Origin: Escherichia coli O127:H6 str. E2348/69
GTDB taxonomy: Bacteria; Pseudomonadota; Gammaproteobacteria; Enterobacterales; Enterobacteriaceae
DNA length: 64,000 bases
Strand: one strand, 5' to 3'
NCBI RefSeq assembly: GCF_000026545.1
Contig: NC_011601.1
Shown: piece after piece, positions 18,848 through 19,991 of the stretch
Numbering within the stretch: the first letter of the stretch is position 1
Layout: the number at the start of each line of letters is the position of its first letter
Program-made: the position numbers and the translations under genes
Notes under the pieces: model-generated
Seen by the model: only the letters and a program-made list of their open reading frames with translations
The model's database searches: none
What the model was told of the DNA's origin: nothing

Positions 18848-19832
18848 TTTTTAACCCACACAATTCTTTTGTTATGTATTTCAGGCTTTGTTAACGTTTC
18901 AGCCAGAATGCTGCACTGTCTGTATATACAAAAAACTGAGTATTGGTGCTATCGTCACCGGTAACTGGAACTTTTACACGGGAGCATCAACCAAATTCGT
19001 TCTTTCATTGTATCCGCGTTATACGTGCATTCAAGCTACAAGATGATGAAAAACGCCTGTGTCTATTCTAGCAAGTGAACCGTCGTGAGTTCAACAGACA
19101 CAAGGGGCTACCCTTCAACAGATCCTGCTCTATGGTTGGGGGCCCCCCTTCGCGTTATGCGTTCTACGTTCATAAATGTTCGCTATTGGCACATGTCGGG
19201 TGAAATACTTGACCAAAAACTAAAGTACACGTGCCTAAGCAAAATCTGAAACTGAGAGACTGGCTAGTCAGAGTCGAATTTTACGCAAGGACTCGGTTCA
19301 ACTCTTTGTTTGGCAGTCTCTGCTCCCAAAAATGGTTTCATGCATATGATAAACCTTTTAGATTAGATTGAGCTCAGGTCAACAATAGTGTCAGATCGAG
19401 CACAAATCAGCACTAATGATGCTACACATCGTTTAGCACATCCAATTTTAGCCACCTAAAATGCGTTCTAATGCGGATATATGTCTACCTGCAATTCTTT
19501 CACCACTTCACACCGAAAACCTCAAATATCGGCTCCTATTACGTTTTTTCTCTGGCTGGGATTTTTACACGTCGAGAATAGGGAAAACATCCCAAAAAAC
19601 GCTTACAGTATTGACGTTACGTTGCAGGTATTCTGGCTTTCAGCATTACAACGCCAATATATATTATTGTTTTTAATATTGTTTTTATTTATCGTTATAA
19701 GATTGATTGTTTTTTATACATCAATTTTTCTATAAGAGTGAATCCTAAATATTGATATTTCTATGGGGTTGCCCTTCATCAAAATTGCGTTTTTTTCTAA
19801 GACTTTTGCTTTTTCATTGAGCTACGCGGATA

Positions 19833-19907
19833 CGCCGCCTCTGGCGGCTTTCTCCCGCGACAGGTCACAATCGTCGAATGCGAGTCGCCGCCTTTGGCGG
19901 CTTTCTC
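19833..19907. repeat. Two tandem 22-bp repeats cgccgcct(c/t)tggcggctttctc, each with a gccgcc/ggcggc palindrome, next to an AT-rich tract
   Basis: Copies at 19833-19854 and 19886-19907, 53 bp apart, immediately downstream of the Rep gene; AT-rich block at 19680-19790. Confidence 0.55.
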
Positions 19908-19991
19908 GCTACTGACGTTTGAGGAGATTATGTTGTGGTTTAATGACTATTTTTGATTAAAAAAACCACAAATGGTCGCAAAACTCTACTA

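Follow-up and report, generated by a model that had tools for sequence, protein, structure and literature searches.

Does the hairpin-rich DNA that follows a Rep gene in a small Escherichia coli island serve as an origin, and does Rep cut in the hairpins? The 64,000-nt stretch of Escherichia coli O127:H6 strain E2348/69 analyzed here (contig NC_011601.1; hereafter, the window) holds a 7.3-kb tyrosine-integrase island with the Hailong system (15925-23206), in which an HUH Rep-type gene is followed by non-coding DNA with two short, nearly identical hairpin repeats. An initial annotation had proposed that these repeats and an adjoining A+T-rich block form a rolling-circle origin at which Rep nicks a hairpin loop. 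Small "integrase-only" islands carry many E. coli anti-phage systems. How such islands replicate or move is an acknowledged open question (PMC10121019).

The earlier interpretation is partly supported by our analysis. On comparison of related sequences, the region is best read as a cis-acting origin of the HUH Rep that would use a nick-primed, strand-displacing mechanism. The non-coding module is probably where Rep starts copying or exporting one DNA strand, and a cut within the hairpin loops is unlikely. The hairpin repeats themselves would be ordinary origin furniture; their value lies in the module that they flag. One island family shares this ~0.5-kb cis region, the HUH Rep, a partner gene, and a predicted antisense RNA with ColE1 plasmids of Klebsiella. 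Positions 19546-21654 of the window make up a concrete, clonable fragment with specific sites to mutate, with which the question of how the islands are processed becomes directly testable.

Two hairpin repeats follow an HUH Rep-type gene

Both direct reading and a repeat finder place the repeats at 19833-19854 (Rep-distal, CGCCGCCTCTGGCGGCTTTCTC) and 19886-19907 (Rep-proximal, CGCCGCCTTTGGCGGCTTTCTC). The two 22-mers are identical at 21 of 22 positions, with starts 53 nt apart, and each contains a perfect 6-bp GCCGCC/GGCGGC stem with a 3-nt loop; the positions and stems are those initially annotated. Read in the sense of Rep (minus strand), the proximal copy is GAGAAA-GCCGCC-AAA-GGCGGC-G and the distal copy is GAGAAA-GCCGCC-AGA-GGCGGC-G. 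The pair is non-random: with up to 3 mismatches allowed, the 22-mer matches just these two sites in the window and none in 100 shuffles, and GCCGCC-N3-GGCGGC occurs only at these sites (shuffle mean, 0.44; two or more occurrences in 6 of 100 shuffles). In single-strand folding, both copies form multi-tier hairpins of ~50 nt, much more stable than those of shuffles (z = −5.25 for the plus strand and −4.2 for the minus strand). A three-tier hairpin at ~19868-19921 encloses the Rep-proximal copy, and an outer CGCGG/CCGCG stem lengthens the Rep-distal hairpin to ~19818-19867.

With two copies only in 64 kb, the repeats do not have the pattern of repetitive extragenic palindromic (REP) elements and RAYT (TnpA-REP), namely many copies dispersed over a genome and a hairpin flanked by GTAG, and a scan of the region against Rfam returned no family. 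The DNA surrounding the repeats is present in 18 of 5426 E. coli genomes, in one copy per genome. Strain ST70 has GCCGTC/GGCGGC in the Rep-proximal copy, which leaves a T-G wobble pair when read in the Rep sense and a C-A mismatch on the opposite strand. We rejected a 50-amino-acid plus-strand open reading frame (ORF) over the repeats (19763-19915) as coding because a 1-nt deletion frameshifts it in strain AH50. Likewise, we do not regard the A/T hairpin GTGGTTT...AAACCAC just past the Rep stop codon as functional, since it is disrupted in both ST70 and AH50. At 19921-19947 (plus strand), a strong Shine-Dalgarno sequence (GAGGAG) and an ATG precede an 8-codon ORF, MLWFNDYF, which converges on the 3′ end of Rep and is kept among the E. 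coli islands only.

The Rep gene (19992-20990, minus strand) encodes 332 amino acids, with motif I (YLLTL) at residues 76-80, H123-L-H125, and Y172-L-T-K175; all three motifs are invariant, the latter two in alignments of 7 and of 14 Rep sequences. The motif order, namely motif I (uuTu), HUH, and then Yxx[K/Y], is that of HUH Rep-type proteins, and the fold of Rep matches HUH nucleases, with His on a central β-strand and Tyr on a helix. The nearest Pfam family is REP_ORF2-G2P, an inovirus replication protein, to which the match is borderline. Judging by these motifs and the fold, the gene beside the repeats encodes an HUH Rep-type protein, as had been claimed, and nicking activity is predicted for it. 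The repeats lie 85-160 nt downstream of its stop codon. Sequence searches of the Protein Data Bank with Rep, a Rep profile, and a profile of the upstream gene X (described below) gave nothing meaningful. A word-indexed protein search returned a single near-identical cluster, a scan of genomes of the species found copies of 95-97% identity only, and a single-protein scan of viral contigs gave no match.

A non-coding module is linked to Rep in every clade examined

At ~30 related loci, whose Reps are 21-60% identical, Rep is followed by a non-coding module of ~450-650 nt. In the window, the module spans 19546-20001 (minus strand) and includes both repeats. The order of elements is common to all loci: the Rep stop codon with a palindrome, GC hairpins, CAATGA/CAATAA, an AAAGTC block, CTTATA, a variable or A+T-rich stretch with TTGACGTT-type repeats, CAACGTAAC/GGTCAA, and CGTAGAAATC. 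In the window, in E. coli islands that carry four different cargos, and at the loci that we label L005, L010, L040, and L041, the module comes after Rep and is on the strand of Rep. A conserved cis sequence linked to its Rep is what is expected in general of a double-strand origin (dso), and the presence of the module after Rep in every clade examined fits the prediction for a cis-acting origin. To this extent, the origin proposed initially is supported. Given the ColE1-type origins that the tested plasmid carriers also have (see below), it may be an origin for induced rolling-circle replication or for strand transfer, as opposed to housekeeping replication.

The first candidate nick or binding site is a near-palindrome, TTACTATTAGTAGTAG (19986-20001, minus strand), that overlaps the Rep stop codon. 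The motif TATTAGTAGT occurs once per source, at or just past the Rep stop codon, in the window, L005, and L006, where the Reps are 24-35% identical to that of the window. Variants are CTGTTAGTAGT in L010, CTACTAGTAGT (a perfect palindrome) in the L017 clade, and TATAGTAGAG in the L013 clade. Since the palindrome is outside the ORF in L006 and L010, a coding constraint does not account for it, and it is a motif of the DNA. A Rep-sense DNA motif at or just past the stop codon, CTATTAGTAGT, is common to the window, L005, L006, and L010. Its complement (TACTACTAA) resembles the pMV158 nick sequence TACTACGAC, a likeness that we take as a lead only. Where other clades have the CTAYTAGTAGT palindrome, L013, L014, L036, and L040 have, just past the Rep stop codon, a (TA)n microsatellite that varies in length (~4 to 10 units) and is followed by GTAGAG.

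The second candidate nick or Rep-recognition site is the block most conserved in sequence, AAAGTCTTAGAAAAAAA-N15-GGGCAACC (19767-19806, minus strand). In the form AAAGTCYTAGAAAAAAA-N15-GGGCWWCC, it is common to the window and to L005 and L010, two loci identified through their proteins, and the 15-nt spacing is fixed in all loci carrying the block; of this block, L006 retains only GTCTTA and GGCTACCATCC. The Reps of L005, L006, and L010, from the protein search, are 22-35% identical to that of the window. When used as a DNA pattern, the block retrieved 27 metagenome loci, and in at least 22 of them the block is immediately preceded, on its own strand, by a gene for a Rep homologue; these homologues are 25-60% identical to one or another family member. 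Both CTAYTAGTAGT and the block are conserved at 21-35% Rep identity. No hairpin consistently conserved around the AAAGTC block across clades was found, as judged by eye.

Three TAGAAA repeats lie on the minus strand (19794-19799, 19758-19763, and 19727-19732; span, 19727-19799), the last of them inside the conserved CTTATAG block (19727-19736), and a cross-clade alignment shows that CTTATA and GTAGAAA/GTAAAAAT-type repeats are kept. The A+T-rich block of the initial annotation is real (78-90% A+T), and it starts earlier than had been described (19640-19760); its sequence varies between clades. In L041 (3217-3657) and also L023, a 146-amino-acid ORF of unknown function interrupts the module, with the CTTATACC block on one side and the TTGACGTT block on the other. 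This point of the module, where E. coli has the A+T-rich tract, therefore tolerates insertions. Consensus sites for integration host factor (IHF) or DnaA boxes were not found in 19380-20000. Two distal conserved blocks on the minus strand, CTGCAACGTAACGTCAATACTGTAAGCG (19600-19628) and ACGTGTAAAAATCCCAGCCAGAG (19550-19572), close the module, and variable cargo begins at ~19546. On this cargo side, several E. coli islands diverge at 19545/19546 and others at ~19390 to 19500.

Hairpins are conserved in position and pairing

We scanned the 260 nt before the AAAGTC block for perfect GC hairpins at 25 non-redundant loci, with mononucleotide shuffles for comparison. All 25 loci have an excess of hairpins over the shuffles (P ≤ 0.027, most 0.000). 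The offsets from the AAAGTC block are also conserved (−43/−45/−55 and −89/−96/−113), with a third GC hairpin at approximately −154 to −185 in many plasmid-clade loci. In the window, the Rep-distal hairpin lies 43 nt and the Rep-proximal hairpin 96 nt before the block. The former corresponds to GGCGC-TYC-GCGCC (−45; plasmid clade) and GAGCGC-MTC-GCGCTC (−55; L005 clade), and the latter to the −89/−113 hairpins of other clades. The distance from hairpin to conserved block ranges from 28 to 40 nt, with flanks that are not conserved.

The stems at these positions are unrelated among clades: E. coli has GCCGCC, the plasmid clade has GGCGC and GGCGG(T), and the L005 clade has GAGCGC and CGCGGC. Stems differ even within one locus, L019 (GGCGGC, GGCGA, GGCGC). 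The loops, of 3-5 nt, vary within and between loci (AAA, AGA, TTC/TTTCA, TGAAA, TCC, CTC, AAAC), and one loop of L010 is inverted (TGAAA for TTTCA). Within the plasmid clade, 100% of cells are paired, with 2 compensatory double changes and 0 broken pairs. Because positions and pairing are conserved and the stems and loops differ, the hairpins are conserved as structure; by this comparison, they appear to be selected as structures and not as sequence. Their number ranges from 0 to 3: L041 and L023 have two, and L006, which keeps CTATTAGTAGT, GTCTTA, and GGCTACCATCC, has no GC hairpins. On these counts the hairpins are dispensable.

These data bear on the initial proposal that each hairpin is a dso nick hairpin with a loop cut by Rep. 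Nicking of hairpin loops is established for HUH Reps of the pT181, pMV158, and CRESS types, and the repeats adjoin both Rep and the A+T-rich tract. However, the loops are 3 nt here and 3-5 nt elsewhere and are unconserved, differing even within the pair of repeats of the window (TCT and TTT), the stems are wholly different between clades, and L006 lacks GC hairpins altogether. Because they are tiny and unconserved, the loops are poor candidates for a nick site, and we consider this part of the initial proposal very improbable. The stop-codon palindrome and the AAAGTC block are, on their conservation, better candidates for nicking or recognition by Rep.

Could the hairpins instead be ordinary intrinsic terminators or a chance repeat? 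TTTCTC follows each hairpin on the plus strand, but this tail has only 4 T in the 8 nt past the stem, the terminator scan did not list the repeats, and in no clade does a U-tract come after the hairpins, whichever strand is read. Because no U-tract follows and the scan did not list them, we conclude that the hairpins are not terminators. Chance is at odds with the absence of matches in shuffles and with hairpins at the same positions in ~25 diverged loci, and terminators or a chance repeat are hardly credible to us.

The hairpins could also act as RNA, as stabilizers or attenuators in the 3′ untranslated region of the X-Rep transcript that would control read-through into the cargo. Their distance past the Rep stop codon and their location on the strand that carries the cargo genes in E2348/69 would suit such a role, as would the ST70 variant, which keeps a G-U-compatible pair on the Rep-sense strand only. 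Yet the hairpins have no U-tract and no Rfam match, the cargo is on the opposite strand in E21845, and the hairpins are embedded among DNA motifs that persist at 21-35% Rep identity. We regard a role at the RNA level as distinctly improbable. The hairpin profile, in which strand specificity is suggested by one wobble variant (ST70) and no ssoA-type consensus is seen, is more in line with accessory elements of the single-strand-origin (sso) or cruciform type, as we infer from the sequences.

Gene X and a predicted antisense RNA adjoin Rep

Directly upstream of Rep lies gene X (21043-21432, minus strand; ~127-129 amino acids), for which the RefSeq version is 21043-21654. Its product is 31-37% identical to that of the gene upstream of Rep in L006, L010, and L041. 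An AlphaFold2 model (predicted local distance difference test [pLDDT] score, 87) has a winged-helix-like core and a long helix, and Foldseek returned weak winged-helix-like matches only, which are not significant (E > 0.1). Annotated lengths of X differ: 203 amino acids in E2348/69 (231 from a TTG in the ORF list, 21043-21738, minus strand), 129 in other strains, and ~127 on plasmids. The N-terminal extension in E2348/69 is probably not real.

A DNA-binding product of X, or the AlpA-like regulator of the island, would offer another explanation of the palindromes, as duplex operators for a dimeric protein. The copies in the window share 22 nt including their flanks, and their spacing of 53 bp, start to start, corresponds to about five helical turns; the winged-helix-like core and long helix of the X model would also suit such a protein. 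On the other side, the differing stems within L019 would be unreadable by one sequence-specific protein, the loop of L010 is inverted, and the fold matches for X lack significance. We think it quite unlikely that the palindromes are operators.

On the plus strand, a countertranscript of ~45 nt is predicted (20977-21038). Its extended −10 sequence, TGaTATAAT (20977-20985), overlaps Rep codons 2-4, and a strong terminator (stem at 21012-21031 plus a T-run) lies in the 52-nt spacer between X and Rep. The predicted RNA (20992 to ~21037) would be complementary to the Shine-Dalgarno and start region of Rep. An antisense promoter and/or terminator is also present at the X-Rep junction in L041, L006, L005, and L010, and such signals are conserved in four or more clades. 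The overlapping −10 box may constrain the N-terminal residues MKLY, which are conserved in Rep. Copy control in pMV158 has the arrangement copG-rnaII-repB, with a small upstream gene and an antisense RNA over the start of rep. By analogy, the antisense promoter and terminator over the Rep start, with a small gene upstream, suggest that Rep is a dosage-controlled initiator.

A proposed mechanism and the rival of transfer

We take gene X, the predicted antisense RNA, Rep, and the ~450-650-nt module as a unit, which is the backbone of small tyrosine-integrase islands and is also carried by some ColE1-type plasmids. For the nicking, the nicked strand, the nick position, and the sso-like role of the hairpins, we infer the following scheme. 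The island would excise, and Rep would nick one strand at the stop-codon palindrome or at the AAAGTCYTAGAAAAAAA...GGGCWWCC block, not in the hairpin loops. Host polymerase and helicase would then displace the nicked strand in rolling-circle fashion, with the A+T-rich tract as a possible melting aid or enhancer region. The GC hairpins may form once the strand is displaced, or as cruciforms extruded from the duplex, in an accessory role that would be either sso-like (priming of the complementary strand) or that of structures for Rep loading or termination. The retention of conserved motifs in L006, which has no GC hairpins, fits a scheme in which the hairpins are accessory and the motifs are core. 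The co-orientation of all E2348/69 island genes with Rep is as in rolling-circle replicons. For the further step, in which the displaced strand is recircularized in the same cell, so that the outcome is rolling-circle replication after excision, the balance of probability seems to us about even.

Several points weigh against this scheme. Covariation within one clade is thin, with 2 events in one lineage, and conservation of the hairpins between clades is positional homology, not a column-by-column alignment. The two hairpins of the window are copies of each other and could share a sequence-specific binding partner. No conserved hairpin-to-motif distance that could fix the nick site was found. 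In addition, a ColE1-type RNAI or origin is present in 10 of the 10 circular or plasmid-type carriers tested. Given this co-occurrence, Rep is not required to maintain these carriers, the data do not force a replication origin, and a transfer function becomes a serious rival.

The carriers in question include complete Klebsiella plasmids of 5.3-6.3 kb with Rep homologues. A ColE1-type RNAI or origin lies at 4078-4178 in L006, 1584-1690 in L010, 5593-5694 in L029 (where it is above the Rfam threshold), 1671-1777 in L040, and 5551-5657 in L041, as well as in others. The ColE1-type region of L040 matches at least 5000 ColE1-like plasmids. Although L040 and L041 have a ColE1-type RNAI or origin, neither receives a replicon type from MOB-suite, which classifies 14 of 16 carrier plasmids as non-mobilizable (no known relaxase). 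Since the tested plasmid carriers also have a ColE1-type origin, Rep and the module are not their housekeeping replicon but an add-on.

Under the transfer explanation, the module would be an origin of transfer (oriT) and Rep a Rep-type relaxase, with the displaced strand exported by the conjugation machinery of a helper. The island would then be a small integrative mobilizable element and the plasmids mobilizable ColE1 plasmids, and the hairpins would serve in the relaxosome, in termination, or in priming on the transferred strand. In favor of this explanation, a ColE1-type origin is already present in every plasmid-type carrier tested, the usual situation in ColE1 plasmids with a mob/oriT module, and the MOB-suite classification leaves room for an unrecognized relaxase. 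Excision would be provided by the integrase and AlpA-like gene of the island. Moreover, the defense cargo directly adjoins the module on the side away from Rep, which matches the reported layout of leading regions beside oriT; defense genes are reported to be enriched next to oriT (10.64898/2026.01.13.699239). MOBT is an accepted class of rolling-circle replicase-type relaxases (10.64898/2026.01.13.699239), and Rep may be a relaxase of this Rep-type (MOBT-like) kind.

Against transfer stand the motif order of Rep, HUH and then Tyr, which is not the permuted order of most HUH relaxases (MOBF/P/Q/V; catalytic Tyr N-terminal to HUH), and the lack of a match to a known MOB family. The nearest Pfam family of Rep is an inovirus replication protein, and replication initiators are typically the proteins controlled by an antisense RNA at the start codon. 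Neither a coupling protein nor any other transfer gene was found in the island, and no inverted repeat with a constant short spacing 5′ to a conserved nic-like motif was seen. We consider the oriT explanation unlikely, though it deserves to be weighed seriously beside a replication origin of Rep.

A further possibility, which we regard as a long shot, is that natural phagemid-like satellites exist and have the X-Rep-module unit as their core for replication and packaging. An inovirus ORF2/G2P-like Rep would make single-stranded circles from the excised island or the ColE1 plasmid, and the hairpin-rich region would supply both a complementary-strand origin and a packaging signal. Either a filamentous phage or a tailed phage able to package concatemers from rolling-circle replication would act as the helper, and defense cargo of any length would spread in this way. 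If true, this would explain both the movement of "integrase-only" islands and the presence of the unit on plasmids with ColE1 origins. The combination of a ColE1 origin, Rep, and a hairpin-rich region resembles a laboratory phagemid. We rejected matches of the DNA pattern in IMG/VR as evidence of packaging, as they are integrated, prophage-adjacent copies, and a megablast search with 17000-21500 against plasmids and phages gave no matches. To our knowledge, no helper phage for the E. coli island has been described.

Distant Rep paralogues occur in L045 (NZ_CP117483.1, 51969-52676), L011, and L012. On ~110-kb Klebsiella plasmids, which are possibly phage-plasmids, distant Rep paralogues lie beside genes for a 5′-3′ exonuclease, a RecA-like recombinase, and an SPFH protein. 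One distant Rep homologue is on a 4.4-kb contig with an inovirus-like gene layout.

Comparison with known systems

The rolling-circle replicon pMV158/pLS1 (copG, antisense RNAII, repB, dso, and ssoA/ssoU) has a control circuit that the predicted X-antisense-Rep layout mirrors, without detectable sequence homology. The non-coding region is downstream of Rep here and upstream there, and the module has no nick hairpin with a conserved loop. Furthermore, X, at ~127 amino acids and possibly with a winged helix, is not a 45-amino-acid ribbon-helix-helix protein, and the unit sits in an integrase island or on ColE1 plasmids.

The intergenic region of Ff phages (f1/M13) is similar in being a non-coding region of several hundred nucleotides with imperfect hairpins, an HUH nick site (a candidate one here), and an adjacent A+T-rich enhancer. 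The nearest Pfam family of Rep and the inovirus-like 4.4-kb contig add to this likeness. In contrast to Ff, the unit shows no sequence similarity, no morphogenesis genes, no recognizable packaging signal, and no matches to phage records, and its region comes after Rep, not before it.

Among integrating elements, ICEBs1 (NicK/oriT plus an sso) and the actinomycete integrative and conjugative elements (AICEs; for example, pSAM2 with RepSA) excise, use one nickase and one nick site for rolling-circle replication or transfer, and have a separate hairpin sso. Unlike the island, these elements carry transfer genes, are much larger, use other nickase families, and reside in Gram-positive hosts. PICMI and other minimal phage satellites are likewise islands of ~6-7 kb with an integrase, AlpA, a replication gene, and defense-type cargo, and PICMI replicates as concatemers, consistent with a rolling circle (PMC10803314). 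Whereas PICMI has a primase and integrates next to fis in Vibrionaceae, the island has an HUH Rep. In the rep-ori regions of SaPI/PICI and PIME elements, the origin is immediately 3′ of the initiator gene, with repeats beside an A+T-rich tract, as in the module (10.64898/2026.01.12.698999). Those regions, however, have helicase or RepA-type theta initiators, at least 4 iterons, and DnaA boxes, whereas the module has an HUH initiator, two hairpin repeats, and no DnaA box that we found. We therefore rejected an iteron-type theta origin, on the grounds of two copies only, no DnaA box found, and an HUH initiator, and also rejected the island as a PIME or PICMI element, as it is not of the same element type.

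The island and its exchangeable cargo

The island is inserted next to der, between der and yfgJ/sinH, and no tRNA gene was found near it. A direct repeat at both ends (15925-15945 and 23186-23206) has the att core GGGTACAC(CCC/TTT)TTGTGTACACA, and two ACCGTGTACCCAA arm-type repeats (23133-23170) lie beside the integrase end. On the minus strand, the order of the genes is tyrosine integrase (21825-23096), X, Rep, 1.1 kb of non-coding DNA, the Hailong cargo of HalA and a nucleotidyltransferase (17065-18847), and an AlpA-like regulator (15959-16558).

In other E. coli strains, the island occupies the same site with a different cargo: a DncV-like (CBASS-type) cyclase pair, an AAA ATPase with a DUF2357 protein, or uncharacterized genes. 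Those strains share the integrase, X, and Rep, as well as the non-coding stretch between the Rep stop codon and ~19546. The cargo slot, which lies between the module end (~19546) and the AlpA-like gene, is a defense hotspot with a sharp junction. It corresponds to 6107-7862 in L002, 5791-7703 in L003, and 3412-7829 in L004, and related metagenome islands have AIPR or SIR2-STAND genes in the same slot. The integrase-X-Rep-module layout is repeated in the chromosomal carriers L020 and L026.

One carrier, L007, is a 9.9-kb contig with the E. coli island that was deposited in a metagenome-assembled genome of 'Candidatus Ligilactobacillus excrementavium', which is probably a binning error. Just outside the island, RefSeq annotates a remnant of an IS4-family transposase (15569-15834) between the att repeat on the AlpA side and sinH.

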